A stretch of DNA of 64,000 bases from assembly GCA_041657405.1 (NCBI GenBank), contig JBBABX010000002.1, forward strand, positions 108,915-172,914, in the 5' to 3' direction. Below are positions 47,963 through 63,278 of the stretch, piece after piece. Under the pieces are notes generated by a model. It was not told the DNA's origin. It was given only the letters and a program-made list of their open reading frames with translations, and made no database searches. The translations under genes and the position numbers were made by a program. This DNA comes from Minisyncoccota bacterium (GTDB taxonomy: Bacteria; Patescibacteriota; Minisyncoccia; Phycocordibacterales; XYD1-FULL-46-19). Numbering within the stretch: the first letter of the stretch is position 1; each line of letters begins with the position of its first letter.

Positions 47963-48034
47963 GGCCCTATCGTCTAATGGCTAGGACATCACCCTTTCAC
48001 GGTGGTAATCGGGGTTCGACTCCCCGTAGGGTCA
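47963..48034 (+). tRNA. tRNA-Glu(TTC); 3' end is the attachment site of the downstream island
   Basis: Acceptor GGCCCTA/TAGGGTC, anticodon stem TCACC/GGTGG with loop CTTTCAC, T-loop GGTTCGACTCC. Confidence 0.85.
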
Positions 48035-48151
48035 CAATAGAGAGAGCTAGTTCGAGCACTCGACAAGGGTCGAAACTAGCAAACAAAAGCAAGTCAGAAA
48101 TGACTTGCTTTTGTTGTAGTTTAATACAACGATTTGTGATATAATATTTTC

Positions 48152-48359: not shown

Positions 48360-49814
48360 ATGTTCGAACAAGCATTCAAAAACATAGACGATATCTTACA
48401 CAAAGACGCTGGCGCATCCAGTGAACTTGATTATGTTGAACAAACATCATGGATCCTTTTCCTAAAATATCTTGATGACTTAGAGGCTGACCGAGCACTA
48501 GAGGCGAGCTTTATGAATAAGGAATATAAATATATCCTACCTTTACAGTTTCGTTGGAATATCTGGGCTTGCCCGAAAAATAAGGATGGCAAAATTGATC
48601 ATAATAAAGCTCTTACAGGAGATGATTTGAAAGATTTTGTTGATCAGAAACTATTCCCTTCACTCAAGAAGTTTAAAACTGATGCACTTAGTCCTGACAC
48701 GATTGAATACAAGATTGGAGAAATATTTAGTGAATTAAAAAACAAGATTCAAAGTGGCTATGCTTTGCGTGAGATTTTGAACATTGTTGATGCGATGCAT
48801 TTCCGATCACAAGAAGAAAAGCACGAGCTATCACATTTGTATGAAGGCAAAATCAAGAACATGGGTAATGCGGGACGAAATGGTGGTGAATATTACACTC
48901 CTCGCCCTCTCATTAAAACAATTGTGAACGTAGTTGGTCCAAAGATTGGCGACAAAATATATGACGGTGCTGTTGGATCGGCAGGATTCCTTGTTGAGGC
49001 TTTTGAATATTTGAAACAGAGCAAAGACTTGTCTACGAAAGACATGGAAATTCTCCAAAAGAAAACTTTCTACGGTAAGGAGAAAAAGTCACTTGCATAC
49101 ATTATCGGTATCATGAATATGATTTTGCATGGTATTGATGCCCCAAATATTATTCACACCAACACACTCGCTGAAAATCTTGCTGATATTCAGGAAAAAG
49201 ATAGATATGATGTGGTCCTTGCCAATCCTCCATTTGGTGGAAAAGAACGTACTGAAGTACAGCAAAACTTTCCAATTAAAACTGGTGAGACAGCGTTCCT
49301 GTTCCTTCAGCATTTTATAAAAATACTAAAAGCTGGTGGTAAAGCGGGTGTGGTTATCAAAAATACATTTCTATCAAATACAGATAATGCATCAGTATCG
49401 CTCCGAAAACATTTACTTGAAAGTTGTAACCTTCACACGGTCCTAGATCTTCCAGGTGGAACATTTACCGGTGCAGGAGTAAAAACAGTTATTTTATTTT
49501 TTGAAAAAGGTGCTCCAACTAAAAAGGTTTGGTACTACCAATTAAATCTCAGTAGAAATCTTGGGAAAACCAACCCTTTGAATGAAAAGGATCTTGCTGA
49601 TTTTATTGCTTTGCAAAAAACAAAAGCAGATTCAGATAATTCTTGGTCCATTGACGTTAAAGATGTTGATCAGAAGACTTTTGATTTGTCTGTGAAGAAT
49701 CCGAATAAGGGGGTTGAGGTTGTTTTGCGGGAGCCGAAGGGTATTTTGGTAGAAATGGAAAAACTTGATGCAGAAATCAAGAGCAATATATTGAGTATCA
49801 AAAAGCTTTTATAA
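48360..49814 (+). CDS. hsdM: Type I restriction-modification system methyltransferase subunit M
   Basis: HsdM N-terminal domain; SAM motif GSAGFL; catalytic LANPPFGG. Confidence 0.9.
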   Translation: MFEQAFKNIDDILHKDAGASSELDYVEQTSWILFLKYLDDLEADRALEASFMNKEYKYILPLQFRWNIWACPKNKDGKIDHNKALTGDDLKDFVDQKLFPSLKKFKTDALSPDTIEYKIGEIFSELKNKIQSGYALREILNIVDAMHFRSQEEKHELSHLYEGKIKNMGNAGRNGGEYYTPRPLIKTIVNVVGPKIGDKIYDGAVGSAGFLVEAFEYLKQSKDLSTKDMEILQKKTFYGKEKKSLAYIIGIMNMILHGIDAPNIIHTNTLAENLADIQEKDRYDVVLANPPFGGKERTEVQQNFPIKTGETAFLFLQHFIKILKAGGKAGVVIKNTFLSNTDNASVSLRKHLLESCNLHTVLDLPGGTFTGAGVKTVILFFEKGAPTKKVWYYQLNLSRNLGKTNPLNEKDLADFIALQKTKADSDNSWSIDVKDVDQKTFDLSVKNPNKGVEVVLREPKGILVEMEKLDAEIKSNILSIKKLL

Positions 49815-49818
49815 AAAT

Positions 49819-50043
49819 ATGAGTAATTCATTTTCAGAAAGACAAAAAATAATTGAGGTAAAAAGTCTAGATCTTCAAGACATGCCCATTGAAGTTAAGA
49901 ACAGGCTTTGGAATATTATTCAAGATTATATTGATAATAAATATCACGAGGGTCATGACCGTAACTTAATTATTGAATCTATTTGGGATAAATTTTTTAA
50001 ACAAAATAAAAATGATCTATGGGGTCAAACTAGTTATAGATAA
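49819..50043 (+). CDS. hypothetical protein inserted between hsdM and hsdS
   Basis: 74-aa ORF 4 nt after the hsdM stop. No motif recognised. Confidence 0.35.
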   Translation: MSNSFSERQKIIEVKSLDLQDMPIEVKNRLWNIIQDYIDNKYHEGHDRNLIIESIWDKFFKQNKNDLWGQTSYR

Positions 50044-50049
50044 AAATAT

Positions 50050-50640
50050 ATGGATTATTACCTAGGTCAAATTCAAGAGAGGTTTTATAAACTTGAGTGG
50101 AATCGCACCTATGATTTTTTGGAATTTATAATTTCTTCTGATAATTATGATCAGCGTAGAAATAATCTTGTCTGGCAGTTAAATCAGGTTTTTGATGAAG
50201 AAAAAATACCTTACAAAATAATTGATGGTCAAGTAACCCCACTAATTTCTGAGGAAGAATTAGAAGAGATTGATACAGCCCTAAACAGTAAGTATGATTT
50301 AGTCTCCAATCATCTAAGAAGGGCCCTCGAGTACTATAAAAAGAGACCAGAAGCCGACTATAAGAATTCAATAAAAGAATCAGTAAGTGCCGTCGAAGCA
50401 TTAGCGAAAATATTATTGAATAATCCACAAGGCACCTTAGGTAAACTTGCTGATGATCTAAACATTCACAGTGCTCTTAAGGAAGCTATAAAGAAAATAT
50501 ACGGATGGACTTCAGATGAGGGTGGTATAAGACACTCAGAAAAGAATGGACAAAAAAGTGTCGATATTGCTGAGGCTAGATATATGCTTGTCCATTGTTC
50601 CGCTCTTGTAAACTTTCTGATTTCAAAATATGAAAACTAA
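50050..50640 (+). CDS. hypothetical protein inserted in R-M operon (possible Abi/HEPN-like accessory)
   Basis: 196-aa helical protein with GWTSDEGGIRHSEKNGQ (R-H pair). Sits at a position where Abi/anticodon-nuclease genes occur in Type I loci. Confidence 0.35.
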   Translation: MDYYLGQIQERFYKLEWNRTYDFLEFIISSDNYDQRRNNLVWQLNQVFDEEKIPYKIIDGQVTPLISEEELEEIDTALNSKYDLVSNHLRRALEYYKKRPEADYKNSIKESVSAVEALAKILLNNPQGTLGKLADDLNIHSALKEAIKKIYGWTSDEGGIRHSEKNGQKSVDIAEARYMLVHCSALVNFLISKYEN

Positions 50641-51841
50641 TTGGCAAACAAAAAAACTCGGTGAGATTTGTGATATAGAGATTGGTAAAACCCCATCTCG
50701 ATCAAATAAAAAACTGTGGGATATTGAGAAAACAACTAAGAATGTCTGGTTGTCCATAAGAGATCTTTCAAATGCGGAAGATGGAATTATCTCTGATAGT
50801 AGAGAATATGTTTCTGATAAAGCTGCATCATCTTTATCGCTTGTTGAAAAGGGTACATTGTTGGTCAGCTTCAAACTCACTCTTGGCCGACTGGCATTTG
50901 CTGGTAAAGATTTATATACGAATGAGGCGATTGCTGCGCTAAATATTAAGGATGAAAAAGAAATATCTAGAGAATATCTATATCAGTATTTAAGTTATTT
51001 TGATTGGGATGCTGCAACAAAAGGTGATGTGAAAGTAAAAGGAAAAACTCTCAATAAAGCTAAATTAAAGGAAATTGAAATAGTATATCCACCACTCCCC
51101 GAACAAAAAAGGATAGTAAAAACTCTTGATGAGACATTCAAAAAACTAGAAAAAGCAAAAGAAATTACAGAAAAGAATTTAAGGAATTCAAAAGAGCTTT
51201 TCGACTCTTACTTGCAGGGAGTTTTCAATAGTCCAAATAGTAATTGGAAAGAGAAACGACTTGAGGAACTAGGCCAGATTACTTCTAGTAAGAGAATTTA
51301 CAAAAAAGAATACGTCACTCATGGTATTCCTTTTTACAGAATAAAAGAAATTAAAGAGCTTGCTCATGATAAAAAAATAACGATTGAGCTGTATATTTCA
51401 AAAGATAGATACAAAGAAATAAAGAATATTTTTGGTATACCCAAAGAGGGAGATATCTTAATGACAGCTGTGGGAACTATTGGTGAAATTTATGTGGTGA
51501 AAAAAGATGAGGAGTTTTACTTTAAAGATGGAAATATTCTCTGGTTTAAAAACTTCGATACTGTAGATCCAAATTTTCTAAAATATGCACTGATTTCCTT
51601 TGTTGAACAAATCAATAATCTTTCTAAAGGTTCTGCTTACAGTGCCCTAACGATAGAAAAAATCGAAAAACATAAGATATTTATACCTACTGACATAAAA
51701 GAACAAAAATCTATTGTTAAAAAACTCGACCATCTTTCTGAACAAACAAAAAATCTCGAATTAATTTATCAAAAGAAAATTTCTGCTATCGAGGAATTGA
51801 AAAGATCCATCCTAAGCAAAGCCTTCTCAAAGGGACTATAG
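50630..51841 (+). CDS. hsdS: Type I R-M specificity subunit S (two target-recognition domains)
   Basis: Duplicated TRD architecture with a conserved central repeat LPPLPEQKRIVKTLDE and coiled-coil spacers. Confidence 0.85.
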   Translation: MKTNWQTKKLGEICDIEIGKTPSRSNKKLWDIEKTTKNVWLSIRDLSNAEDGIISDSREYVSDKAASSLSLVEKGTLLVSFKLTLGRLAFAGKDLYTNEAIAALNIKDEKEISREYLYQYLSYFDWDAATKGDVKVKGKTLNKAKLKEIEIVYPPLPEQKRIVKTLDETFKKLEKAKEITEKNLRNSKELFDSYLQGVFNSPNSNWKEKRLEELGQITSSKRIYKKEYVTHGIPFYRIKEIKELAHDKKITIELYISKDRYKEIKNIFGIPKEGDILMTAVGTIGEIYVVKKDEEFYFKDGNILWFKNFDTVDPNFLKYALISFVEQINNLSKGSAYSALTIEKIEKHKIFIPTDIKEQKSIVKKLDHLSEQTKNLELIYQKKISAIEELKRSILSKAFSKGL

Positions 51842-51843
51842 TA

Positions 51844-54171
51844 TTGTATAATGTCAAGCATATGAACGAAGCAGAAACTAGAGCTGAATATATTGATCCG
51901 AAGCTAAAAGAATCTGGCTGGGGTGTCATCGAAGGATCCAAAGTCCTTCGAGAATTTCGTATATCTCCAGGGAAAATTCAAATCGGTGGTGCTCTACAAA
52001 AACCTGAAATTGCAGACTATGTCTTGGTATATAAAAACCGTAAGCTTGCGATTGTAGAAGCAAAGAAAGAGTCACTTGAATATACAGAAGGTGTTGCTCA
52101 AGCAAAGACATATGCTGGTAAACTTCAGATTGCTTATACATACTCTACAAATGGTCACGATATCTATGAGATAGGAATGCAAACAGGTCTCGAGGGACCA
52201 GTGAATAAATTTCCAACACCGGATGAACTCTGGGATAAGACTTATTCAGATCAAAATGCTTGGAAAGAAAAATTTACCAATGTCCCATTTGAAGACGTAA
52301 ACGGGAGTAAGAATGCTCGCTACTATCAAGAGATTGCCGTTAATCGTGTTATGGACGCTGTGGCAGAAGATAAGAAAAGAGTGTTGCTGACACTTGCAAC
52401 AGGTACGGGAAAAACTTTTATTGCTTTCCAAATTGCGTGGAAACTATTCCAGAGCAGATGGAATCTATCAAAAGACGGTGAAAGACGACCTCGTATACTT
52501 TTCCTAGCTGATAGAAACATACTTGCTGATCAAGCATTTAATGCCTTCGGTGCTTTTCCAGAAGATGCTTTGGTTCGTATAACTCCAAATGACATTCGTC
52601 GTAAAGGTGAGGTCCCAATGAACGGCAGTATCTTCTTTGCTATTTTCCAAACATTTATGAGCGGTCCAAATGACACTCCTTACTACGGTGATTATCCTTC
52701 AGACTATTTTGATTTCATTATTATTGATGAGTGTCACCGCGGTGGTGCAAATGATGAATCTAATTGGCGAGGTATTCTTGAATACTTCTCTCCTGCGGTC
52801 CAACTAGGTCTTACAGCTACTCCAAAACGAAAAGATAATACAGACACATATAAATATTTTGGTGATCCAGTCTATATATACTCTCTTAAGGAAGGTATAA
52901 ACGATGGATTCCTTACACCGTTCAAAGTCAAAAGAATCAAAACAACGCTTGATGAGTACATCTACACATCAGACGACATGATTGTTGAAGGTGAAGTAGA
53001 AGAAGGAAAGGTTTACAAAGAGGATGATTTTGCTCGTGGAAATATAAAAATTATTGAGCGAGAGGAATTTCGTGTTAAGACATTTTTGAAAGAAATAAAT
53101 CAAAATGAAAAAACTATCGTATTTTGTGCTACACAAGGTCATGCGCTTCTTGTTCGTGATTTGATAAATAAACATAAAGAAAATAAAGATCCAAATTATT
53201 GTCAGCGTGTTACTGCAAATGATGGTTTTCTTGGTGAACAATATCTAAGAGAGTTTCAAGATAACGAAAAGACCATCCCGACAATTTTGACTACATCACA
53301 AAAACTTTCTACAGGAGTAGATGCACGAAACATTCGAAATATTGTACTTATGCGACCAGTCAACTCAATGATTGAGTTTAAACAAATAGTTGGACGTGGC
53401 ACGAGACTGTTTGATGGTAAAGAATATTTCACAATTATAGATTTTGTAGATGCATATCATCATTTCCTAGATCCTGAATGGGATGGCGAACCGATTGATC
53501 AAACCACTGAAGAGGTTGAGCCGAAAGAACCAAAAGAGCCTAAGGAACCGAGAGAACCCGGACCAACACCTGAGCCACCAGAAGAACAACCAAGGAAGTT
53601 GAAAATCAAACTTCGTGATGGTAAAGAAAGAGAAATACAACATATGGTCCAAACATCTTTTTGGAGTGCTGATGGTAGACCAATTTCTACTGAAGAATTT
53701 TTGAATAATCTTTATGGAACCTTGCCTGATTTATTTAAAGATGAAAAACAATTAAGAGATATTTGGTCAAATCCACAAACTCGAAAGACTCTACTTGATA
53801 AACTTGGTGAACTTGGATATGGAAAAGATCAGCTTGAATCTATTCAAAAAATTATAAACGCTGAGAATAGTGATTTGTTCGATGTGCTTGGATATATTGC
53901 ATTTGCATTACAGCCTATTACTCGTGCAGAGAGAATTCAAAATACAAAGTACGACATCTTGGATGGTTTAGATGAAAAACATCGTGAGTTTATTGAATTC
54001 GTATTAGCTAAATATCAAGAGAGAGGTGTTGAAGAATTAGATGAAGAAAAACTCCCACAATTACTCAATCTCAAATATCACGCTATTTCTGATGCCGAGA
54101 AAAAACTTGGCGGAGTTAAATTGATCAGATCAAATTTCTTTACCTTTCAAAAGCATCTTTATTCAAAATAA
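51844..54171 (+). CDS. hsdR: Type I restriction enzyme R subunit (short, ~775 aa) with Pro/Glu/Lys-rich linker
   Basis: HsdR N-terminal nuclease region TRAEYIDPKL; helicase motif I LATGTGKTF; DEAH-like IIDECHRG; motif VI QIVGRGTR; EPKEPKEPKEPREPGP linker. Confidence 0.9.
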   Translation: MYNVKHMNEAETRAEYIDPKLKESGWGVIEGSKVLREFRISPGKIQIGGALQKPEIADYVLVYKNRKLAIVEAKKESLEYTEGVAQAKTYAGKLQIAYTYSTNGHDIYEIGMQTGLEGPVNKFPTPDELWDKTYSDQNAWKEKFTNVPFEDVNGSKNARYYQEIAVNRVMDAVAEDKKRVLLTLATGTGKTFIAFQIAWKLFQSRWNLSKDGERRPRILFLADRNILADQAFNAFGAFPEDALVRITPNDIRRKGEVPMNGSIFFAIFQTFMSGPNDTPYYGDYPSDYFDFIIIDECHRGGANDESNWRGILEYFSPAVQLGLTATPKRKDNTDTYKYFGDPVYIYSLKEGINDGFLTPFKVKRIKTTLDEYIYTSDDMIVEGEVEEGKVYKEDDFARGNIKIIEREEFRVKTFLKEINQNEKTIVFCATQGHALLVRDLINKHKENKDPNYCQRVTANDGFLGEQYLREFQDNEKTIPTILTTSQKLSTGVDARNIRNIVLMRPVNSMIEFKQIVGRGTRLFDGKEYFTIIDFVDAYHHFLDPEWDGEPIDQTTEEVEPKEPKEPKEPREPGPTPEPPEEQPRKLKIKLRDGKEREIQHMVQTSFWSADGRPISTEEFLNNLYGTLPDLFKDEKQLRDIWSNPQTRKTLLDKLGELGYGKDQLESIQKIINAENSDLFDVLGYIAFALQPITRAERIQNTKYDILDGLDEKHREFIEFVLAKYQERGVEELDEEKLPQLLNLKYHAISDAEKKLGGVKLIRSNFFTFQKHLYSK

Positions 54172-54176
54172 GAAAA

Positions 54177-55457
54177 TCAAGTAACCTTAATTGTCTTATT
54201 CTTCAAAACAAGCTCACTACTGATACATTCCAAGATAGATCTTTGCTCTAGCGGAGATCCTTCTTTCAGTACAAATTTTGTATAATCCTTTAGATCAATA
54301 GGTTCTATTTTCTCTGTCTTTTTCTTGCCCAAAAACATTGCTTGTAGCTTCTTAAACTTTTGAATTTCAACATCAAGCTTTGCAGTGAGTTTAACCTTGT
54401 TTATGTTCAAAGTATCAACCATATTAAGTAGTGATTCGATAAGTTCAGTTTCGTTCAGTGCAGGATTTTTACAATTCCTGTCTTTGGCTTTTGTGCATCG
54501 GTAATACACATGCCGATTAACTCCACCATTCAGCAACTTCTTAAACTTTTCATCCGCAGTAATACCTGATCCACAAACTCCACATTTCATAATTCGCGTA
54601 AAAGCAAATTCTTTACCTTGAGATTTAATAACTTGTGACTTGATAGAGTTTCTTGTCTCGTCAAACAATTCTTTAGAGATAATAGGTTTATGTTTTCCCT
54701 CATACCAAACACCTGATCCTTGTGGGAACTCAAAGCGACCATAGTAGAAAGTATTATTTATAATCTTGAATACATTTCCTAAACTTAGATGAAAACCTCT
54801 GTGAGTTTTAAAATCAAGATCATACCGTAACCATGCGTGTACTTTTGATACACTCCATTTTTCATAACTAATCTTCTCAAATATTTGTCGTATGGTATCA
54901 GCTCGTTCTGGATCAATTTCTACCTCACACTTTGCTAATCGTTGATTAGGCTTTCTATATCCTGTTGGTGGTTGTACTGGCCATAATCCCATTTCGCACC
55001 TAGCTCTCATACCACGCTTTACATTGATACTTTTATTATCGTTTTCGAGTTTTGCCTGACTACAAAGGATCATTAGCAGGAACTTATCACTTGGTGAATT
55101 AGAAAAAGTCTGACCAAAAGTTTTGATCTGAATTAGTTTCCTTTGATCCATTCTATCTACAAGTTTTCCGAGGTCACCTGCATTACGAGAAAGTCGATCA
55201 GGTGCCCATGTGATTATTCCGTTGAATATCCCCGTGTCGATATCTTTTACGATTTCCTCAAATACAGGTCTTTGTCCAGATTCTTTTGCAGAGTGGGATT
55301 CCTTGCGGATCTCAACAATGGTGAGATTTTCACGCTCGGCAATCTGCTTCATTTCTTTGATTTGAGAATCAATAGAAAGTGCTTGCTTTTCCTCTGCTTC
55401 GGTTGACTTACGAGCGTATAAGCAATACTTCATTTGGCTTTGTTCAACTTCTGTCAT
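54177..55457 (-). CDS. large serine recombinase (resolvase domain + recombinase domain + zinc ribbon)
   Basis: Catalytic-Ser N-terminus YARKSTEAEEKQALSIDSQ; recombinase domain; C4 zinc ribbon CGVCGS...YYRCTKAKDRNC. Confidence 0.85.
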   Translation of the reverse strand: MTEVEQSQMKYCLYARKSTEAEEKQALSIDSQIKEMKQIAERENLTIVEIRKESHSAKESGQRPVFEEIVKDIDTGIFNGIITWAPDRLSRNAGDLGKLVDRMDQRKLIQIKTFGQTFSNSPSDKFLLMILCSQAKLENDNKSINVKRGMRARCEMGLWPVQPPTGYRKPNQRLAKCEVEIDPERADTIRQIFEKISYEKWSVSKVHAWLRYDLDFKTHRGFHLSLGNVFKIINNTFYYGRFEFPQGSGVWYEGKHKPIISKELFDETRNSIKSQVIKSQGKEFAFTRIMKCGVCGSGITADEKFKKLLNGGVNRHVYYRCTKAKDRNCKNPALNETELIESLLNMVDTLNINKVKLTAKLDVEIQKFKKLQAMFLGKKKTEKIEPIDLKDYTKFVLKEGSPLEQRSILECISSELVLKNKTIKVT

Positions 55458-55559
55458 ATATATATTAATGACGCAGATCAGCTCTTTTGCTAAGCACTCA
55501 ATCGTTGGTAACTTGTTGGTAACTTCCTCTGTTATTTTAAGGTTCTGCGATAGAATGGT

Positions 55560-55790
55560 CGTTGAATAATAGGGTCGAAAATGTTATTATTTGTTTACAA
55601 CTAAATCAGTAGCCTAAACCATTGCTTCGGCAGTGGCATGGTGAATTAAGTCCGTTGAAGATAAAGAACCCATCATGTGGGGTTTGTCTTCCAAGGCCGT
55701 ATCGGGAAACTGGTACGGAGGGTTTAAACCCTCAACCTATGTGGTGGGCTTTTTGTTTCTCTACATAGGATTATTAATCCTAACCTTGAG
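55560..55790 (+). ncRNA. candidate structured RNA / 5' leader upstream of GIY-YIG gene
   Basis: Multiple local helices (GCTTCGGCAGTGGC, GGAGGGTTTAAACCCTC, CATGTGGGG/CCTATGTGG). GC content is well above the local background. Confidence 0.2.
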
Positions 55791-55793
55791 AAA

Positions 55794-56396
55794 ATGAACG
55801 AAATAATTTATATCCTCATAAATGAAGCGATGCCTGGTTATGTGAAGATAGGTAAAACTTCCACAAGTTTAGAACAACGAATCCGAGAGTTAAGTTCTTC
55901 AACAAGTGTTCCTATCCCGTTTACATGTTTCTATGCTTGTACAGTAAAAAGTGCAACATTTGTTGAACAGCAACTACACGATGCATTCGATGACAGTCGT
56001 ATAAATCCACGAAGAGAATTCTTTCATATTTCACCAGAACGAGTGGTAGCCGCACTTAAACTTGCAGAGATAGAGAACATCACCCCAAAGAGAGACTTTG
56101 TAGAATCTAAGGAAGATCAAGAAGCCTTGAATCAGGCCCGCACACGACGATCTAAATTTAATTTTAGTATCGTGAATATTCCAGTCGGAGCTGAACTTGT
56201 GTTCAGTCGAGATGAAAATATTAAGGCTCGAGTTGTTGATAATAATGCAGTTGAGTTTAATGGAGAGATAACTAGCCTTTCTACTTCTGCTCAAAAGATA
56301 CTTGGCTACGATTACGGAGTGGCTGGAACAGACTACTGGATGTATGAAGACGAAACACTTGATGAACGGAGAAGAAGAATTGAGACAGAGGAATAG
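55794..56396 (+). CDS. GIY-YIG nuclease superfamily protein (T5orf172/DUF4357-like)
   Basis: IIYILINEAMPGYVKIGKTS...EQRIREL...H..F...R...REFFHISPE fits the T5orf172 GIY-YIG pattern. Confidence 0.6.
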   Translation: MNEIIYILINEAMPGYVKIGKTSTSLEQRIRELSSSTSVPIPFTCFYACTVKSATFVEQQLHDAFDDSRINPRREFFHISPERVVAALKLAEIENITPKRDFVESKEDQEALNQARTRRSKFNFSIVNIPVGAELVFSRDENIKARVVDNNAVEFNGEITSLSTSAQKILGYDYGVAGTDYWMYEDETLDERRRRIETEE

Positions 56397-56409
56397 AATT
56401 CATTTCTAG

Positions 56410-56994
56410 CTACATTGATGGAATATCAGACTCTTTAGGTTTTTTTATCTTTGGTGGCTTTTTTCCAGTTTTTTCGTATTCTTTCATCCATTCCTCAAAT
56501 ATTTCCTGTGCTCTATATTCATTCGGCTTATTAAGAACACCTCTCCATTTATCCAGAAATTCCACCGCATTTTTTCCTGCTTGTTCTTGTTTTTTCTTTT
56601 CTTCTTCTGTAACAGTGTTTCGTATATTCTGCTCGATTTCGCGTTGTCTAACCCCTTCCATTGTGGAACGGAAATGCGTGATCAAATCATCAGAATCAAC
56701 TTTGAACACATATGGTCTTCTGAAATCAGGGTGCTTATGACTTAACCAATACTTTGTATACATGGTGTCTTTTCTCTTGATACCTTCAAGTACATTACTA
56801 AGAGCAACATCACTAACAAGACCGACACCAAGCGACATAGCTTCATTTATTCGAACGAGAAATTTATGATCCTCTTTCATCCAGCGATAGAAAGTATTTC
56901 TTGAAATACCAATCTTATCACAAGCGATCTGAATGACTGGTGTTTTCTCAATCTCTTCCGCGAGTTTATTAAGCAGTGCCTGTGTCTTTTTCAT
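56410..56994 (-). CDS. HTH protein resembling phage terminase small subunit
   Basis: N-terminal HTH IQIACDKIGISRNTFYRWMKED; basic/acidic C-terminus with a KKPPKIKKPK tail. Confidence 0.4.
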   Translation of the reverse strand: MKKTQALLNKLAEEIEKTPVIQIACDKIGISRNTFYRWMKEDHKFLVRINEAMSLGVGLVSDVALSNVLEGIKRKDTMYTKYWLSHKHPDFRRPYVFKVDSDDLITHFRSTMEGVRQREIEQNIRNTVTEEEKKKQEQAGKNAVEFLDKWRGVLNKPNEYRAQEIFEEWMKEYEKTGKKPPKIKKPKESDIPSM

Positions 56995-58252
56995 AAATCG
57001 CCTTACAACCTGTCAGCTTCTCGTACCTACATACGATCAAGTCACAGAAAACTTCAGAAAGCTCGCACCCATACACCCTTCGACCAAGAGCTTGCGCAGA
57101 AATAAGAGTGCTACCCGAACCAAGAAAGCTGTCCAGAATGATGTCATGGGGCTTCGTACAGCGTTTTATGGCTTTCTCATGGAGCTGTGGAGGTTTAGAT
57201 GTTGCATGTTCGTATTCCTTTGCAGGCAATCGTTTAGCCATCCAAACATCGTTAATTTCTTCAAGTAAGTCATTACCAGTACTTAATTCTTTATTAAGAA
57301 CCTCATTGAGATTTTTAATATTTGAAAGGTATGGTTTTCCACGAATACCGTATACAACAGGCTCATATACTTTATTAAACGCCACAGACGGAACGGGGTT
57401 CTGATTGTTTTTTAACCATAAACACACTCGTTTGTTGGCAATACCTAAAGAGCGATATAGATCCTGAACTACTCCGATATACACCTGATCACACCAGTAA
57501 AATACATGAGTATCTTTATTTGAAACAGCGAGAGCGGCCTCCATGCTGTCTTTCAAAAACTTTTTATACTCATCAAAACTTCTAGTGTCATTCACATTTC
57601 CACCATAATCTTTCTTGCCTCCAATACCACCATCGTAGTCTACGGAAATGTTATAAACTGGATCGCTATAGATCATGCTTGCTCGGTCATTACCAAGCAG
57701 ACGAACAAGGTTGTTTTTATCCGTAGAATCTCCACAAAGGATGCGATGATTTCCGAGAATGATAATGTCACCAAGTTTAGTTTTTGGATTCTTGATTTTC
57801 TTTAGTTCTTTTTCGACATCAAAATCGTCTCCCGTAACTTCTTTTTTGGTGTCCATAAGTTCGCCGATTTCAATCGGGTCGAAACCTGCAAACTCCAACG
57901 TCTCGAAATCGAATGATTTGAGTAAACCAAAATCCCAATCACCGCCAAGCTTATTGGAAGCGATCAAGTACTCTTTTGATTCCTTTTCCGTAAGCTTACG
58001 GTTGGGTACACGAATATCAATAAGCTCTTCACCTCGACCGATGAGTTGCAGAGCTTTTATTCGCTGATGACCAGCGAGAATTGTGCCGTCTTTGTCGACA
58101 GCGGGTATCTCAACAAGGTTATACTTCTTGAGACTTCTAGTAAGATCCGACATTTGCTTGTCGGTAATAACACGAGGATTGATCTTTTGAGGGATAAGAT
58201 CATTAACCCGTTTTTGGACTGTAGTCCAAGATAGTTTTTTCATAAGTAACAA
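56969..58252 (-). CDS. ParB-like nuclease domain fused to beta-class N6A/N4C DNA methyltransferase (orphan MTase)
   Basis: ParB-N box LVEIPAVDKDGTILAGHQRIKAL; motif IV SDPVY (DPPY variant); C-terminal motif I ILDSFLGSGST. Confidence 0.75.
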   Translation of the reverse strand: MLLMKKLSWTTVQKRVNDLIPQKINPRVITDKQMSDLTRSLKKYNLVEIPAVDKDGTILAGHQRIKALQLIGRGEELIDIRVPNRKLTEKESKEYLIASNKLGGDWDFGLLKSFDFETLEFAGFDPIEIGELMDTKKEVTGDDFDVEKELKKIKNPKTKLGDIIILGNHRILCGDSTDKNNLVRLLGNDRASMIYSDPVYNISVDYDGGIGGKKDYGGNVNDTRSFDEYKKFLKDSMEAALAVSNKDTHVFYWCDQVYIGVVQDLYRSLGIANKRVCLWLKNNQNPVPSVAFNKVYEPVVYGIRGKPYLSNIKNLNEVLNKELSTGNDLLEEINDVWMAKRLPAKEYEHATSKPPQLHEKAIKRCTKPHDIILDSFLGSGSTLISAQALGRRVYGCELSEVFCDLIVCRYEKLTGCKAIYEKDTGTA

Positions 58253-58410
58253 CGATAAAAAAGCTGATAAATTTTGCCATAAAAATTTAAAATACCGATG
58301 ACTGTCAGTATTTTTGCTTGTTACTTAAACTCTCCTAGTGCTACAGATGTCCAAAAACATCTGTACTATCAGTTTATCAATTTGATAAATTATGTCAAGC
58401 AAGTTATACT

Positions 58411-58674
58411 GTGGATATGTCAAAAAAGATAACTTTTAACGATCTTGATAAAGATATTGGACAAAAAATTAAAGATTGTCGTTTAGAAGCAGGATATTCT
58501 CAAACAAATCTTGCGAGACTTTTAAAATACGAAACACCTACTGCTATTTCACTGATTGAAAGTGGAGAGAGAAGCTTAAAGATTCATGATCTCATTATTC
58601 TCTGTCAGCTTTTTATGAAAAACTACGAATACTTCTTAGATAAACCCGATACTCATAAAATGGTCGAGAAATAA
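58411..58674 (+). CDS. XRE-family HTH regulator
   Basis: IGQKIKDCRLEAGYSQTNLARLLKYETPTAISLIESGERSLKIHDL. Confidence 0.65.
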   Translation: MDMSKKITFNDLDKDIGQKIKDCRLEAGYSQTNLARLLKYETPTAISLIESGERSLKIHDLIILCQLFMKNYEYFLDKPDTHKMVEK

Positions 58675-58695
58675 AAGTATAACTTTAAACAGTAT

Positions 58696-61600
58696 ATGCA
58701 ATTTTTAGATAAAGAATGGTCAAAAAAGCACTTAGAGGATATCAAAAAGAAAGCTGATAAGCGTTACACACCAGAATTAAATGTTGAGCTTCCTATATCT
58801 GAGATTTTTGACGGACTTGGTCGTACTAAGGCTTTTTATACAACGGTGCAATCTCACTACGGGAAACTTTTTAAAAGATTTAGGTCAATAACCAGTGTTT
58901 ATAAAAATAGAAAAATTCAAAGAACATTTAATTCTTTTGCTCGAAATGTAAAAGAGCTATTAGATATTCTAGAAAACGTAAAGAAGTACGAGACAACACA
59001 GATCCCGTGGAAAAAAATTAATTCGCTTGCTGAAAAATCACAGTCTTATTCTTGGAAACTTTCTGACCAAATTAGAAAGGAAAAAGAAAAACCTGTCCAA
59101 AAAGAATTGCTTAAACCAGAAGAACCTTATACTTATCCAAGAACCAATGCTGATATATTCAACTCTGATCTACACGATATAACAGAAGTTCAAAGGGAGC
59201 TTAGATTTTTTATAGACTTTAGTAAAAGCACTTCCGCAGAAACTTCAAATAGACCATTTCTGTTGGTTAATGGACTAGCCGGATCTGGCAAGACACACTT
59301 GCTGTGTGATTTGGTTAAACATCGAATTGATAAGGGCTACGCTCCTACTGTTCTAAGCTTCGGTGAATTTTTTGAAGGCAGTGATGATATTTGGTTCAAA
59401 ATGGCCAAACAGTTTGGGTTGAATCCCGTAAAATGGAATAAGGACAAAATACTAAAAGAACTTGATAATAAGGGTAAGTCTACAAAAAGCAGGTCAATCT
59501 TAATGATTGATGCTTTAAATGAATCGAGGCCATTATCTTTTTGGAACAGTAAACTTAAAAAGCTTCTTGCTGATATTCGCAAATATCCAAATGTGGCTCT
59601 CGTAGCAACTATCCGTTCAGGTTTTGAGAAAGATGTAATAAATGAAAATGTTAAGAAACAATTTACCCAAGAAGAGCATCGGGGCTTTGAATTTCAAGAA
59701 TGGGAAGCTGTAACAAAATTCTTTAAAGAGTTTTCATTACCCCTTCCAGAAATCCCTCTCTTAACTCCTGAGTTTCAAAATCCGCTTTTCCTTCTATTAT
59801 TTTGCAAAGCATTTGAGAACACAGCCGGAAAGAAACAGAAAAAGTCATTCAAAGGTCAGGAAGGTGCTACACATATTTTTGAAAAGTATGTTGATTCGGT
59901 CTCAAAGAAAATTGAGAAAAAGTTTAAAATTGATCACGGGCCAGGAAAGAATATCTGGGATACGGTAATAGAAAAGATTGCCGAACAAATGGTTAATAAA
60001 AATGTAGACAGATTATTTGCGGATGATATTTTGAAGTTAATCAAAAAAGCTCACCCTGCACTTGGTGAAAGTACTCTTTTAGATGATTGCGAAAAGAACT
60101 TTTTACTGGTTAAAGTTCCACATTATGTACCAGAAACAGGTACTTCAGCAGGCTTTGATTATCGTTTTCCTTTCCAGAGGTTTAGTGACCATTTAGTCGG
60201 AAGATCTCTTTTTAAGAAGTATGAAAAGGAGTTTGGTAAAACAAACAAAAATATTTCCACTGCAACTAAATTCTTTTCAAAAAGAAGGAAGCTAGGAAAA
60301 TTTTTAAGTCGTGGAATTAACCGAGGAATCATAGAAGCTCTATTTATTCAGTGTCCTGAACAACTCAAAGGTGTTGAGTTTTTTGAGGTGGCTCCACATG
60401 TAAAGGACTACCTAGCTAAAGATGCTTTTGTTCAAAGTATCGTATGGAGACAACCATCAGCATTTTCTTCAGATCTTAAAAAACCACTCGAATTTATAAA
60501 TAGAAGAATATTAGCATTTGGAGACGGAAACTCAGCAATCTTAAACGCTTTTCTATCTGTAGCCGTCGTTCCCTCACATCCATTTAATGCAGAATTTCTC
60601 CATAAGCATTTAATGAAGATGAAGATGCCAGCCAGAGATGCTTGGTGGTCAGTGTTTCTTCATGACGAACACAAAGACAGAAACGCAGTAGATCGACTGC
60701 TTAAGTGGAGTTGGTCTGATCAAGAATTATGCCATCTCACAGACGACTCAATCTTTTTAACCGCGATTACGCTTGCTTGGTTCTTAACTACACCGAACCG
60801 TTTTGTTAGAGACAAGGCGACTAAAGGTTTAGTGACTCTGCTACAAAATAGATTAAACCTCGTTAAAAGGCTTTTGGAAAAGTTTGAGAACGTAGATGAC
60901 CCTTATATTACGGAGCGATTATTCGCTGTTGCCTATGGGAGTATTCTTAGAAACCAAAAAGATACAGCTAATATAAAAACCATAGCTGTTTATACCTACA
61001 ACAAGTTTTTTAAGAGCAACAGACCACCTGTACATGCTTTGATTCGAGATTATGCTCGTGGAATTATTGAAGCCGCTAGACTAAACAAAATTAATTTCCG
61101 TCATTCCATTAAGAATACCGAACCCCCTTATCAGAGTACTTGGCCTACCAAAATACCTAGTAAGAAAACCTTAAATAAAAAATATAGTTTGGAGGATTAT
61201 TCCATAACAGAAAATAGTTTCCGTAGTGTCTGGTCATCATTAACCTTTGATGATTTTGGTAGGTACGAAATTGAATCACATCTTGGCTATTGGTCTGGAA
61301 GAAAATTAAACGTGGCAGAACCTGATAGAAAGGAAATATATAAAAAATTTAAGAGTGGTTTAACGAAGAAACAAAATGATTTGTTGGGCAAGGCAACTAA
61401 TATATTCTTTGGGATAAACATTAATAAAATAATGGCTCAAGTTAGGTTTGTAACCCCGGGGGAAAATAACGAAGTGGATGAGAAAGAAGAAAAAAAGAAC
61501 GAAGCGAAAGCAAAGAAAGAGAGAAAAGAACTTCTTGTAAACTTCAAGAATTCACTAAGTTTTAAAAAGCGTAAATATTTTGAAACAGAAATAGAGCCTT

Positions 61601-62838
61601 TTCTCGACGACCGTGGGTCTATTGAGGATCCTCGTGAGCGTTTTGATACCTCCCTTGCTCCAAGATGGATATTTAATCGTGTTATAGAGCTAGGTTACGA
61701 CCCAGAAATTCATGGAAAGTTTGATAATCGAGTTAACCGCTATGATAGTAGTGGCAGATCAAACCATAAAGCAGAGAGAATTGGTAAAAAATATCAGTGG
61801 ATTGCTTTGCATGAATTTACTGCCTTAGTAGCAGACCATTTTGAATTTACAGGTCGATACTGGGGCAGAAGTGGAGGAAAATATCTTGGCGCATGGAACC
61901 CATACATTAGGGATATAGATCCATCTTTGCTCATACAAAATGACAACAAAATAAAAGCAGAAGCAGAATTTAAAAATTGGAATAGTGGTCATGGAAAATA
62001 TGACGGTTGGTTGAAAGAAAGGAGTGATACGAAGTGGCTCCAAAAGAAATCCGATTTGCCTGATCCAAGAGAGATAATCAATATTACGGATGATACTGGT
62101 AGAAATTGGCTAGCTCTTAAAGGTATATTTGTTTGGCAACAAGAAACCCCACCAGAGCGAGAAAAATATGATTATCCTACTCGTGAATTGTTTTATATCT
62201 TAAAGAGCTTTATTGTCAAAAAGAAAGACTTAAAAAAGATTACTACTTGGGTAAAAAGCAAGGGCTTTGGTAATTGGTTGCCTGAATCAAATAACTGGTA
62301 CGAAACATTTATAGGTGAATTTCCAAATTCATCCTCCTTCGAAGATATGCGTGGCGACTTTAATGTATGGACTAAATCAAGTGATAAAGCTGTAGAAATA
62401 AGCAAGATTCCTTTGGTAGTGACTGACGATGGCTATTTAAATGAATTTACTCTCGATTGCTCGAGAGATGAAGGTATATCTATAATGCTTCCCTCAAAAT
62501 TCATTGTTAAAAAAATGAAATTGAAACAACCTGAGTTGGATGGAAGATTTCGAGATAAAAAAGGAAAGGTGGTAATGTACGCAACGAGTGTTTCTGAAGA
62601 AAACACACCTTCTGCGCTTATAGCTGACAAAAAAGAATTTTTAGAATTTTTGAATAAAAACGGATTAGCAGTCTTCTGGACTTTACTAGCAGAAAAGCAG
62701 TTTATTGGAGGAAGTAGATCGGGAATGGACGGATATAAAGGACGGTTGGAAACTTCTGGAATTTATTACTTTGACTCCAAAGACAGACTAAAAGGAACTA
62801 TGAATTCGAAATTTGATTCACCAAAGAAGAAATCCTAA
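58696..62838 (+). CDS. 1380-aa STAND/NACHT-like P-loop NTPase with long C-terminal helical region (candidate antiphage defence protein)
   Basis: Walker A LLVNGLAGSGKTHLL at ~aa 195; Walker B ILMIDALNE; sensor-like VALVATIRSG; about 1000-aa C-terminal region of unknown function. Located in a mobile island beside the R-M system. Confidence 0.55.
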   Translation: MQFLDKEWSKKHLEDIKKKADKRYTPELNVELPISEIFDGLGRTKAFYTTVQSHYGKLFKRFRSITSVYKNRKIQRTFNSFARNVKELLDILENVKKYETTQIPWKKINSLAEKSQSYSWKLSDQIRKEKEKPVQKELLKPEEPYTYPRTNADIFNSDLHDITEVQRELRFFIDFSKSTSAETSNRPFLLVNGLAGSGKTHLLCDLVKHRIDKGYAPTVLSFGEFFEGSDDIWFKMAKQFGLNPVKWNKDKILKELDNKGKSTKSRSILMIDALNESRPLSFWNSKLKKLLADIRKYPNVALVATIRSGFEKDVINENVKKQFTQEEHRGFEFQEWEAVTKFFKEFSLPLPEIPLLTPEFQNPLFLLLFCKAFENTAGKKQKKSFKGQEGATHIFEKYVDSVSKKIEKKFKIDHGPGKNIWDTVIEKIAEQMVNKNVDRLFADDILKLIKKAHPALGESTLLDDCEKNFLLVKVPHYVPETGTSAGFDYRFPFQRFSDHLVGRSLFKKYEKEFGKTNKNISTATKFFSKRRKLGKFLSRGINRGIIEALFIQCPEQLKGVEFFEVAPHVKDYLAKDAFVQSIVWRQPSAFSSDLKKPLEFINRRILAFGDGNSAILNAFLSVAVVPSHPFNAEFLHKHLMKMKMPARDAWWSVFLHDEHKDRNAVDRLLKWSWSDQELCHLTDDSIFLTAITLAWFLTTPNRFVRDKATKGLVTLLQNRLNLVKRLLEKFENVDDPYITERLFAVAYGSILRNQKDTANIKTIAVYTYNKFFKSNRPPVHALIRDYARGIIEAARLNKINFRHSIKNTEPPYQSTWPTKIPSKKTLNKKYSLEDYSITENSFRSVWSSLTFDDFGRYEIESHLGYWSGRKLNVAEPDRKEIYKKFKSGLTKKQNDLLGKATNIFFGININKIMAQVRFVTPGENNEVDEKEEKKNEAKAKKERKELLVNFKNSLSFKKRKYFETEIEPFLDDRGSIEDPRERFDTSLAPRWIFNRVIELGYDPEIHGKFDNRVNRYDSSGRSNHKAERIGKKYQWIALHEFTALVADHFEFTGRYWGRSGGKYLGAWNPYIRDIDPSLLIQNDNKIKAEAEFKNWNSGHGKYDGWLKERSDTKWLQKKSDLPDPREIINITDDTGRNWLALKGIFVWQQETPPEREKYDYPTRELFYILKSFIVKKKDLKKITTWVKSKGFGNWLPESNNWYETFIGEFPNSSSFEDMRGDFNVWTKSSDKAVEISKIPLVVTDDGYLNEFTLDCSRDEGISIMLPSKFIVKKMKLKQPELDGRFRDKKGKVVMYATSVSEENTPSALIADKKEFLEFLNKNGLAVFWTLLAEKQFIGGSRSGMDGYKGRLETSGIYYFDSKDRLKGTMNSKFDSPKKKS

Positions 62839-63258: not shown

Positions 63259-63278
63259 CGACTCCCCGTAGGGTCACA
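63259..63278. repeat. attR-like 20-bp direct repeat of tRNA-Glu 3' end
   Basis: Identical to 48018-48037. Confidence 0.8.

Follow-up and report, generated by a model that had tools for sequence, protein, structure and literature searches.

Avs2 (AVAST type 2) proteins are STAND NTPases that serve as pattern-recognition receptors, what they detect being TerL, the large terminase of tailed phages; structures of the family have been solved and its trigger is the phage large terminase (PMC13601566, PMC11564622). In Avs2 from E. coli (EcAvs2, PDB 9o4e; Evans et al. 2026, PMC13601566) a helical extension forms the stretch between the effector and the ATPase and contacts the terminase, and the roles of the terminase-site residues have been described (PMC13601566). 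In the KpAvs2 type the active site of an Mrr nuclease is essential to abortive defence (K71A; Bechon et al. 2024, PMC11564622), and in every characterised Avs protein mutation or deletion of the effector ends toxicity or defence (KpAvs2 K71A, PMC11564622; PMC13581612). Here we took up a 1380-aa protein encoded in the window, by which we mean the whole 64,000-nucleotide stretch of DNA that was analysed and to which all coordinates refer. A preliminary description had noted its likeness to antiviral STAND proteins of the Avs/AVAST type, a placement that our PADLOC, NCBIfam and 9o4e matches bear out. It had also called it a candidate uncharacterised system outside any family it could name, which proved mistaken: the protein is Avs2, with known structures and trigger, and an identical GenBank sequence (MFA5736903.1, Candidatus Paceibacterota) is already annotated as such.

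Identity and architecture of the 1380-aa protein

The reading frame begins with the first start codon past an in-frame stop, and we divided it as follows.

58696..62838, + strand: Avs2 (AVAST type 2) STAND NTPase, core-only form, 1380 aa (PADLOC, NCBIfam, 9o4e)
58696..59250, + strand: helical extension, not an effector, aa 1 to ~185 (AF2 model, EcAvs2 alignment)
59251..59700, + strand: P-loop NTPase core, aa ~186-335, 3' limit approximate (motifs, model, Foldseek)
59701..62838, + strand: sensor region, a helical TPR-like part and a C-terminal beta-rich sensor (homology to EcAvs2)

The PADLOC search that the preliminary description had proposed returned Avs2 over the full length, profile PDLC02164 scoring 1291 bits at E=0 and pairing residues 2-1378 of the query with positions 169-1501 of its 1504. 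The NCBIfam equivalog for Avs2, NF041813, gave 1190.8 bits against its cutoff of 1000 bits, and the EcAvs2 chain of 9o4e aligned with E=1e-196 (query 19-1372 to chain 180-1481). Judged by these sequence matches, the protein is a full-length, equivalog-level member of Avs2. The preliminary description had held that a confident match to a housekeeping ATPase family would speak against defence; the matches of that kind, to PriA, Hda and KaiC, lay at the level of the P-loop and below threshold (E=1e-3 to 0.08). These weak matches, together with the ORC/Cdc6/DnaA-like structure of the core, are the points in favour of a housekeeping ATPase or one that maintains the element (for example as replication initiator, primase-helicase or partition ATPase), but they are generic to STAND and AAA+ folds, the full-length Avs2 matches are stronger by many orders of magnitude, and the terminase-binding domain of EcAvs2 has its homologue in the ~1000-aa sensor. 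We accord this reading next to no probability, the PADLOC, NCBIfam and 9o4e matches ruling it out.

The single P-loop some 190 aa from the N-terminus, the Walker B motif and the TxR noted earlier were all located. There is one copy of Walker A (GLAGSGKT, aa 193-200), Walker B reads ILMIDALNE (aa 268-276, with D272 and E276), and the T-x-R lies at aa 305-307 (ATIRSG). In all 49 aligned short forms, four of them cyanobacterial and placed apart from the main clade, K199, T200, D272, E276 and R307 never vary, and in 81 long forms they hardly do. The core has an alpha/beta fold in the model, and its best Foldseek matches were Avs4 (8dgf), ORC/Cdc6 and a plant NLR. The sensor region aligns contiguously with 9o4e up to chain residue 1481 of 1484. 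Five terminase-site residues of EcAvs2, kept across the family, are conserved in the window protein (D981 as D853, R1130 as R1021, E1362 as E1250, E1444 as E1333 and E1462 as E1352), and the aromatic at W1266 is kept as Y1158. The bridging-ATP residues T1128, R1132 and E1364 are not conserved, being S, N and T in the window, and these positions vary in the long forms too. Because the NTPase motifs and the terminase-site residues are retained, sensing probably proceeds as in EcAvs2.

The missing effector and the core-only clade

The protein starts at EcAvs2 position ~162-166, the boundary at which the EcAvs2 effector ends, and leaves positions 1-168 of the PADLOC Avs2 profile unmatched. Residues 1 to ~185 align with EcAvs2 ~166 to ~335; in the AF2 model aa 1-185 consist of seven helices and no strands, with pLDDT mostly >90, and run into the P-loop. 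Foldseek found no enzyme fold in this part, and the conserved residues of the extension (W8, R23, Y24, P26 and others) are also present in long forms. The short N-domain of the preliminary description is no domain of unassigned role: aa 1-185 are the conserved helical extension of Avs2, and a fused effector is absent. The earlier remark that no effector was recognisable held, since Pfam, PADLOC, NCBIfam and PHROGs gave nothing besides the STAND/Avs2 core and aa 1-185 are purely helical. Upstream of the Avs2 start we found no effector remnant, the N-terminus coinciding with the domain boundary, and outside the core there is no N-terminal peptide of the docking or amyloid-signalling type.

This lack of a built-in killing domain is the only unusual trait of the Avs2 here, and it is common to a large group of relatives. 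Among the matches listed, 120 with full query coverage are ~1340-1405 aa long, and in a neighbour-joining tree 45 of 49 short forms made up one pure clade, set against 81 long forms whose N-domains are Mrr-like, EcAvs2-type, trypsin or TM. The clade, sampled mainly from CPR bacteria and archaea, is deep and monophyletic, its members sharing 32-78% identity with the window protein; the closest diverged relatives (loci L082-L087 and L168) show 68-86% protein identity. Compared with the closest homologue, dN/dS is about 0.07-0.10 in every region along the whole length. By the tree and these ratios, core-only Avs2 is an old, conserved clade under strong purifying selection. In the literature searched we found no experiments on any core-only Avs2.

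These observations bear on a reading as inactive relic or dominant-negative decoy, in which a truncated Avs2 is kept by chance or blunts a host Avs2 on behalf of the element. Every Avs tested so far depends on its effector (PMC11564622, PMC13581612), which is missing here, and the carrier is a phage-derived mobile element; both would suit such a role. We nevertheless consider it improbable in view of the depth and divergence of the monophyletic clade, its invariant catalytic residues, the low dN/dS throughout, the clean N-terminal boundary without upstream remnant and the defence genes that are its neighbours; nothing speaks specifically for a decoy.

Another explanation is a two-part system, in which core-only Avs2 is the sensor and its tetramer activates a separate effector in a way akin to the proximity activation of fused ones, the partner of the window protein being gone or encoded elsewhere in the genome. 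Several relatives point this way. Loci L082/L083 and L087 have a ~160-aa multi-pass membrane protein right 3' of Avs2 (homologous between them, 41% identity), in L085/L086 the start of a TM protein of 158 aa, unrelated to these, overlaps the stop of Avs2, and in one group of cyanobacterial Avs2 a separate gene for 150-163 aa directly precedes the Avs2 gene, a split architecture. Multi-gene Avs2 systems are also known, namely trypsin-MBL (10.64898/2026.08.25.746987) and KpAvs2 with Avap1/2 (PMC11564622). Against this, neighbour clustering of ~55 short-clade loci yielded no universal partner, most loci having unrelated neighbours, and the candidate neighbour proteins matched no known effector family. 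The window locus has no downstream membrane protein, only a non-conserved 57-aa ORF before attR, and its Avs2 bears no docking or amyloid-type peptide. We regard the two-part system as rather unlikely.

The carrier island and the XRE gene

Avs2 lies in an integrated island of 15.2 kb at a tRNA-Glu gene, bounded by an exact 20-nt attL/attR repeat, CGACTCCCCGTAGGGTCACA. The other features of the island are listed here.

48017..48036, + strand: attL, at the 3' end of tRNA-Glu(UUC) 47963-48035 (20-nt direct repeat)
48360..54171, + strand: Type I R-M system, hsdM, hsdS, hsdR and an interrupting gene (PADLOC)
48360-49814, + strand: HsdM (PADLOC MTase_I E=5e-159)
50630-51841, + strand: HsdS (PADLOC Specificity_I E=1e-50)
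51844-54171, + strand: HsdR (PADLOC REase_I E=4e-137)
54177..55457, - strand: large serine recombinase (Pfam Resolvase, Recombinase, Zn_ribbon_recom; PHROG integrase phrog_95 E=1.7e-62)
55794..56396, + strand: T5orf172/GIY-YIG-like protein, PADLOC candidate PDC-S57 (Pfam T5orf172 E=1e-16; PDC-S57 E=3.7e-73)
56410..56994, - strand: small-terminase-like HTH protein, 194 aa, element backbone (PHROG phrog_4102 E=1.1e-10)
56969..58252, - strand: ParB-like N-domain fused to an N6/N4 DNA methyltransferase (Pfam N6_N4_Mtase E=8.6e-31)
58342..58410, no strand: candidate operator/promoter region (palindromes, divergent promoter-like hexamers)
58342-58365: perfect palindrome TACAGATGT-N6-ACATCTGTA
58373-58389: perfect palindrome TTTATCAA-T-TTGATAAA
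58371-58410: divergent promoter-like hexamers
58417 (ATG) or 58411 (GTG)..58674, + strand: XRE-family HTH protein, a lineage-specific add-on (Pfam, PHROG)
63259..63278, + strand: attR, right island end (20-nt repeat, identical to attL)

The attR that had been placed 3' of Avs2 was recovered as the exact repeat at 63259-63278 with its partner at 48017-48036; similarity ends on both sides of the repeat, and the chance expectation for such 20-nt pairs is ~1e-4 in 17 kb. The neighbouring Type I R-M system was likewise found as described (HsdM/HsdS/HsdR, PADLOC E=1e-50 to 1e-159). It forms the defence cargo together with a PDC-S32/AbiJ-like gene, split over 74-aa and 196-aa ORFs between hsdM and hsdS (PADLOC), and the PDC-S57-like gene, whose position is a variable cargo slot occupied by another gene in relatives. 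The carrier has a backbone of phage origin, made up of the serine integrase, the TerS-like protein and the ParB-methyltransferase. The recombinase is the only one in the island, and it is conserved in L082, L084, L085, L087 and L007, as are homologues of the small-terminase-like protein, which three more TerS PHROGs match. The ParB-methyltransferase (phrog_498 E=1.5e-83; ParB-like phrog_620 E=3e-24), divergent from Avs2, is conserved beside it in L082-L087 and L007.

The XRE protein has 85 aa from the ATG or 87 aa from the GTG, and matches Pfam HTH_3 (E=3.2e-8, better than the cutoff) and PHROG transcriptional regulators or repressors (E=1e-8 to 7e-9). The preliminary description was right to place a small XRE gene before Avs2, but not to call it Avs2's own. 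A dedicated two-gene system, with the HTH protein obligatory as regulator or output, would account for the shared strand, the 21-nt gap, the lack of a terminator-like site between the genes and the palindromes in the upstream promoter region, and an XRE gene is also directly 5' of Avs2 in L008, L019 and L113. These are, however, the only other such cases, making 4 of 37 short-clade loci. Their XREs fall into two unrelated families, phmmer not linking that of the window to those of L008, L019 and L113, and the closest diverged relatives (L082-L087, L168) have no XRE upstream of Avs2. The seven contigs that carry the window XRE match the window at 99.96-100% DNA identity, so they resample one element and count as a single observation. 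Non-conservation thus largely refutes a dedicated XRE-Avs2 system, to which we give very little chance; most likely the XRE is a repressor acquired by the element lineage and lies outside the Avs2 mechanism. Promoter-like matches in the upstream region numbered 13 against 14.9 expected from shuffled controls, no excess, so that a function for this candidate region is only inferred.

Proposed action and comparison with known systems

Overall, a core-only Avs2 that is a TerL receptor by homology, with the XRE as an acquired repressor, is in our view the probable explanation. By homology to EcAvs2, the window protein with bound ATP would on infection bind the ATPase domain of phage TerL, and the TerL-bound protein would assemble into a tetramer. 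That TerL is also recognised in a Paceibacterota host is an extrapolation from proteins of E. coli, Klebsiella and Vibrio at ~30% identity. The canonical output, in which proximity activates a nuclease or protease fused to the sensor, is impossible for a core-only form. The tetramer might instead trap TerL stoichiometrically, so that genome packaging is blocked and the cell is not killed, an output that we put forward tentatively. Recruitment of an effector encoded elsewhere or variably is possible though doubtful, and some other output, or no activity, accounts for what is left; as an effector is essential in every characterised Avs, the core-only protein alone may give no defence. By binding to the palindromes of the divergent promoter region, the XRE would hold the XRE-Avs2 transcript at a low level, and its repression may perhaps extend to the backbone operon.

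Trapping would need Avs2 at levels comparable to those of TerL, for which an autorepressed XRE operon is not an obvious source.

The window Avs2 is one more member of the core-only group, set apart only by the element that carries it and by an XRE gene specific to its lineage. Its homology to EcAvs2 begins with the helical extension and runs through to the C-terminus (~30% identity over the aligned core); the two share the order of helical extension, STAND NTPase, TPR and C-terminal sensor, and the Walker motifs and terminase-site residues (D981, R1130, E1362, E1444, E1462) are conserved. EcAvs2 differs in its N-terminal effector of ~165 aa, lacking in the window protein, and in its host, an enterobacterium rather than a CPR bacterium. 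KpAvs2 and the majority of Avs2 proteins, with an Mrr nuclease, share their sensor and NTPase family with the window protein, and 81 long forms align with it across the whole core, whereas their PD-(D/E)xK Mrr-like N-domain (...PDAGVEC...WQAKYF...) is wholly absent from the window protein and neither of the KpAvs2 accessory genes Avap1 and Avap2 lies near it. Avs2-trypsin-MBL of Vibrio cholerae shares the terminase-recognising Avs2 sensor (bioRxiv 10.64898/2026.08.25.746987) and is a precedent for an Avs2 with a separately encoded effector, an MBL nuclease (10.64898/2026.08.25.746987). Its fused trypsin-like N-domain cleaves and activates the partner, while the window protein has no protease domain and no adjoining MBL gene. 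Core-only homologues are already in databases (PADLOC model PDLC02165), for example P0080 (Ratteibacteria), P0093 (Thermoleophilia) and P0113 (Caldicellulosiruptor), all of which NCBI names Avs2. At ~1370-1400 aa, in the same clade and with 45-86% identity in the database search, they show no difference of substance from the window protein.

Assignment of the window protein to Avs2

The window encodes at 58696-62838 (+) a 1380-aa protein with a single Walker A motif (GLAGSGKT, aa 193-200), a Walker B motif (ILMIDALNE, aa 268-276, containing D272 and E276) that fits the pattern hhhhD-x2-(N)E and a T-x-R at 305-307, as the preliminary description had reported. The ORF begins at the first start codon past an in-frame stop, and no in-frame upstream extension is possible. 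That description also placed the protein among antiviral STAND NTPases in a defence island, which agrees with our results, and considered its family unnamed and uncharacterised, which does not. Six PADLOC Avs2 models match the protein over essentially its full length in the best case (PDLC02164, E=0, 1291 bits, query 2-1378), and another of the PADLOC Avs2 models, PDLC02165, has 1375 positions, a length in agreement with this short form. The protein also passes the curated 1000-bit cutoff of the equivalog model NF041813 in NCBIfam ('AVAST type 2 anti-phage system protein Avs2'), with a score of 1190.8 bits and query 20-1362 aligned to model positions 4-1313 of 1317. A phmmer search of PDB sequences returned one strong match, 9o4e (E=1e-196, query 19-1372 to chain 180-1481), which is the cryo-EM structure of E. 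coli Avs2 (EcAvs2) bound to phage terminase (PMC13601566). Since 9o4e was absent from the PDB match list of our Foldseek search, the tie to EcAvs2 is one of sequence and not of fold comparison. GenBank already lists the identical sequence under MFA5736903.1, with the title 'AVAST type 2 anti-phage system protein Avs2 [Candidatus Paceibacterota bacterium]'. GyrA and FtsZ of the window bear this organism label too, which makes the host a member of the CPR/Patescibacteria. By homology, at the equivalog level, the window protein is thus a member of Avs2. Pfam gave STAND matches that were all sub-threshold, which may explain why the family was not named by eye.

The Avs2 call had already been made by standard tools (PADLOC, NCBIfam/PGAP) for a family with structures and a known trigger, and as a new antiphage family the protein matters little, Avs2 being already known. 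The interest is narrower but genuine and lies in how core-only Avs2 proteins, those without a fused N-terminal effector, give an output.

The core-only architecture

A search of 5.8 billion proteins with window Avs2 as query listed 120 matches with full query coverage (∼1340-1405 aa, 45-86% identity), several of them named Avs2 by NCBI. We retrieved 80 genomic and 80 metagenomic loci and measured the Avs2 ORF length in each: an N-terminal extension of ∼160-230 aa is present in 89 and missing from about 60. Most of these extensions are PD-(D/E)xK Mrr-like (...PDAGVEC...WQAKYF...), with some of the EcAvs2 type, two trypsin-like and one transmembrane, in agreement with the published N-domain types of long-form Avs2 (PMC13601566, PMC11564622). 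A neighbour-joining tree was built from 1213 core columns of 133 full-length proteins; in it, 45 of the 49 short forms, the window protein among them, group as a single pure clade, with 32-78% identity to the window protein. The short-clade hosts in the genome set are 10 CPR bacteria, 3 archaea and 3 others, and none of 52 long forms is from CPR, counts that are biased because the loci were ranked by similarity to a CPR query. Compared region by region with its nearest diverged homologue, that of L168 (84% nucleotide identity), the window gene has dN/dS values of 0.075 (helical extension), 0.066 (NTPase), 0.097 (TPR) and 0.099 (C-terminal domain). The depth of the clade and these low values indicate that the core-only architecture is old and under strong purifying selection. 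Judged from the tree, the short form is a clade and not a truncation. We found no paper on effector-less Avs or on Avs in CPR bacteria in the literature searched; an earlier mention elsewhere is possible.

Outside the main core-only clade, a cyanobacterial group of four Avs2 loci (L014, L036, L126, L127) has an N-terminal extension of just 41-46 aa and a separate gene of 150-163 aa directly upstream, which in L014 (5367-5858) overlaps the Avs2 start. The two genes may represent an effector in split form or a signalling pair of the amyloid type.

EcAvs2 is ordered as N-terminal effector, helical extension, ATPase, TPR and C-terminal sensor (PMC13601566). In the alignment, window Avs2 starts at EcAvs2 position ∼162-166, the boundary between effector and helical extension, and PADLOC profile positions 1-168 have no counterpart in it. 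From there the homology runs on through the TPR part and the beta-rich C-terminal sensor. An AlphaFold2 model of aa 1-400 (12 homologues, mean pLDDT 81.7) has seven helices across aa 6-185, followed by the first NTPase strand and the P-loop of an alpha/beta fold. The Foldseek matches of this model in the PDB, Avs4 (8dgf), ORC/Cdc6-type ATPases and a plant NLR, were all through the NTPase, and nothing enzymatic was returned for aa 1-185. Nor did Pfam, PADLOC, NCBIfam or PHROGs detect an effector in aa 1-190. With no profile match, a purely helical model and NTPase folds only in Foldseek, we rejected a hidden effector in this region; an upstream effector remnant or mis-called start was likewise rejected, given the in-frame stop and upstream DNA occupied by an XRE gene and a candidate promoter region. 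Conserved residues of the N-terminus (W8, R23, Y24, P26, L32, F38, R43 and others) are just as well conserved in relatives that carry an effector and so belong to a shared helical extension, not to a clade-specific active site. The earlier impression that the protein has no recognisable effector was therefore correct, aa 1-185 being the helical extension alone. In EcAvs2 this extension touches the terminase (PMC13601566).

The canonical output mechanism cannot apply to a protein with no fused effector, but its family membership stands, as an effector does not define the family. Avs effectors are variable modules that are trimmed off in the family definition and are typical of characterised Avs.

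Sensing, candidate partners and output

Sensing by Avs2 consists of ATP-dependent binding of the ATPase domain of TerL, the large terminase subunit, together with tetramerisation (PMC13601566; 10.64898/2026.08.25.746987). We compared the contact residues using as a numbering proxy for EcAvs2 a 1484-aa Avs2 (L131) that agrees with it at nine of nine published residues.

EcAvs2 residues of the terminase site and their counterparts in window Avs2
D981 (Mg/bridging-ATP network): D853
R1130 (terminase ATP gamma-phosphate): R1021
E1362: E1250
E1444: E1333
E1462: E1352
W1266: Y1158, a conservative aromatic change

All six positions are conserved in short and long forms, and five are identical in window Avs2. 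Of the bridging-ATP contacts of EcAvs2, T1128, R1132 and E1364 are S, N and T in window Avs2, at positions that vary among long forms too. In the NTPase, K199/T200 of Walker A, D272 and E276 of Walker B and the sensor arginine R307 are invariant in the 49 short homologues and nearly so in ∼81 long ones. Terminase recognition and NTP-dependent oligomerisation are therefore probably retained, as far as residue conservation can indicate. Because the contact residues are conserved, we infer that TerL would activate window Avs2, and we would expect with reasonable confidence, by homology, that the protein binds the TerL ATPase domain with ATP and tetramerises.

Every characterised Avs needs its effector (PMC11564622, PMC13581612), and in KpAvs2, an Mrr-nuclease Avs2, mutation of the nuclease active site abolishes defence (PMC11564622). 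Since the fused effector is essential there, the output of window Avs2 cannot be canonical, and we weighed four possibilities. Inactivity is unlikely in view of the purifying selection. Stoichiometric trapping of TerL is a serious candidate, though we would not rate its chance as even. An effector acting in trans, either variable or unlinked, is possible if somewhat doubtful, and some other output is a further possibility.

To look for a trans partner, we clustered neighbour genes over 167 loci and scanned the candidates with Pfam and PADLOC; no universal neighbour family and no known effector emerged from these loci. Multi-pass membrane proteins of ∼160 aa lie just downstream of Avs2 in three close relatives (L083, 7233-7721; L087, 11177-11668; L085, 12161-12637). 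Those of L083 and L087 are homologues at 41% identity, that of L085 is unrelated to them, and none of the three has a Pfam or PADLOC match. They are candidate trans effectors of these relatives. The window has no equivalent membrane protein, with only a 57-aa ORF between Avs2 and attR, for which we sought conservation and found none.

The other immediate neighbour is a small XRE HTH gene (58417 or 58411 to 58674, +; 85/87 aa, HTH_3 domain) that ends 21 nt upstream of Avs2. The gene is real, as the preliminary description had it, but the distribution argues against its being the protein's own regulator. An XRE gene is directly upstream in 4 of the 37 short-clade loci whose upstream DNA spans 2.5 kb or more, and these belong to two unrelated families, those of L008, L019 and L113 being of a different family from that of the window. 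XRE is absent from the four nearest relatives for which flanking DNA is available (P0002-P0005, 68-77% identity), from the short upstream flank of P0001 (86% identity), and from the closest diverged loci (L082-L087, L168). By this distribution XRE is not a conserved partner of Avs2.

Seven contigs encode an identical XRE in DNA 99.96-100% identical to the window; we rejected those from other samples as independent evidence, since at this identity they are the same element resampled, and counted them once. The methyltransferase-XRE-Avs2 segment (L001, L169-L173) is found at 99.96-100% nucleotide identity in contigs of at least six separate sequencing samples (SRR18595299, ERZ27247346, ERZ27247350, SRR6484787, JGI 3300028603, SRR8449813), which indicates that the organism or element recurs across datasets. 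Nearly identical XREs of 69/70 aa also precede core-only Avs2 in L008 (5702-5914, Levybacteria, CPR) and L019 (5707-5916, a gammaproteobacterial MAG), a likeness that points either to an XRE-Avs2 cassette moved recently between phyla or to a binning error. In the window the XRE and Avs2 ORFs share a reading frame (58411-58698), separated by one TAA and seven codons, and read-through would put the HTH at the effector position of other Avs2 proteins. We rejected the shared frame as meaningful, as it occurs in two of the four XRE-Avs2 loci, the chance level.

Two features lie in the intergenic region upstream of XRE:

58342-58365: perfect palindrome
58373-58389: perfect palindrome overlapping divergent promoter-like hexamers

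In a promoter scan of this region matches were no more numerous than in shuffled sequence. The palindromes and hexamers would fit an autoregulated XRE repressor, suggesting a candidate promoter/operator.

Returning to TerL trapping, we speculate that core-only Avs2 proteins are a functionally distinct, non-suicidal STAND branch where one protein both senses and acts as effector, its ATP-dependent tetramer trapping TerL and blocking packaging; as a whole this proposal is rather unlikely. The trapped TerL would be partly unfolded, as in EcAvs2, genome packaging would stop and the cell would survive. As a variant, an element with a TerS-like (small terminase subunit) protein may use a TerL binder against the packaging of its helper phage. 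Such a non-suicidal strategy, if real, could be well matched to the tiny, slow-growing cells of CPR bacteria and archaea and to the phage-derived, TerS-bearing elements on which the gene travels. The defence-island context and purifying selection are indirect indications that window Avs2 may give phage resistance.

The interest of these proteins is that a deep, large and strongly conserved Avs2 clade, mostly of CPR bacteria and archaea in our similarity-ranked sample, is effector-less while characterised Avs need effectors. They bear on whether STAND defence proceeds by target sequestration alone or by signalling to unlinked effectors, and either output would say something about the coupling between sensor and effector modules in NLR-like immunity.

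The island and its carrier element

An exact 20-nt direct repeat, CGACTCCCCGTAGGGTCACA, occurs at 48017-48036 and 63259-63278, with similarity ending on both sides. The first copy is the 3′ end of tRNA-Glu(UUC) (47963-48035), and the pair bounds an island of 15.2 kb. The second copy bears out the attR reported after Avs2, and the adjacent type I R-M system is likewise real, with HsdM, HsdS and HsdR to the left of Avs2 identified by PADLOC (E-values 1e-50 to 1e-159). Other features of the island are:

49819-50043 (74 aa) and 50050-50640 (196 aa), +: split PDC-S32/AbiJ-like candidate defence gene, between hsdM and hsdS
54177-55457, -: large serine recombinase (Pfam, PHROGs), the sole recombinase of the island
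55794-56396, +: T5orf172/GIY-YIG-like protein (PADLOC PDC-S57, E=3.7e-73)
54177-58252: carrier backbone, with kin in L082, L084, L085, L087 and L007

The split PDC-S32/AbiJ-like ORFs cover profile positions 8-79 and 86-281 of 285, which points to a frameshift or stop in a pseudogene or split gene. Type I R-M, Avs2 and the PDC-S32-like and PDC-S57-like genes make the locus an example of antiviral cargo carried by a mobile island of a Paceibacterota bacterium; to our knowledge, phage defence is poorly studied in this group.

In the window's sub-lineage the conserved part is this backbone, made up of the serine recombinase (-), a variable gene (+), a TerS-like gene (-; phrog_4102, E=1e-10) and a ParB-like/N6-N4 methyltransferase (-), from which Avs2 is read divergently (+). 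The variable slot is filled by the PDC-S57-like gene in the window and by unrelated genes in relatives. L007 (Parcubacteria) has the same backbone genes in permuted order, which is what integration of a circular form at varying points would produce. Cargo between tRNA and integrase also differs, being type I R-M in the window and a DUF6119 gene in L087. The backbone is present in 8 of the 37 short-clade loci, making it a carrier and not a functional partner.

The L087 island adjoins tRNA-Glu(CTC) (45-119) and that of L007 tRNA-Gln (4259-4331); the att repeat had no match in any locus, the L087 and L007 sequences stopping short of the far ends. The window island has a 20-nt tRNA repeat, yet its integrase is a serine integrase alone, with no tyrosine integrase inside. 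Long att identity is atypical for serine integrases.

Searches with Pfam, PADLOC, NCBIfam and PHROGs found no primase, replication or capsid-morphogenesis genes in the island, and TerL is also absent. From its gene content, the carrier backbone resembles a small element of phage origin that bears a TerL sensor. The hallmarks of PICI-like satellites are an integrase, a repressor, a replication module (primase/rep-ori) and packaging or capsid-redirection genes such as TerS. Compared with these, the window island has an integrase, a TerS-like protein and an XRE, and we regard the carrier element as reminiscent of a satellite while not classing it as one.
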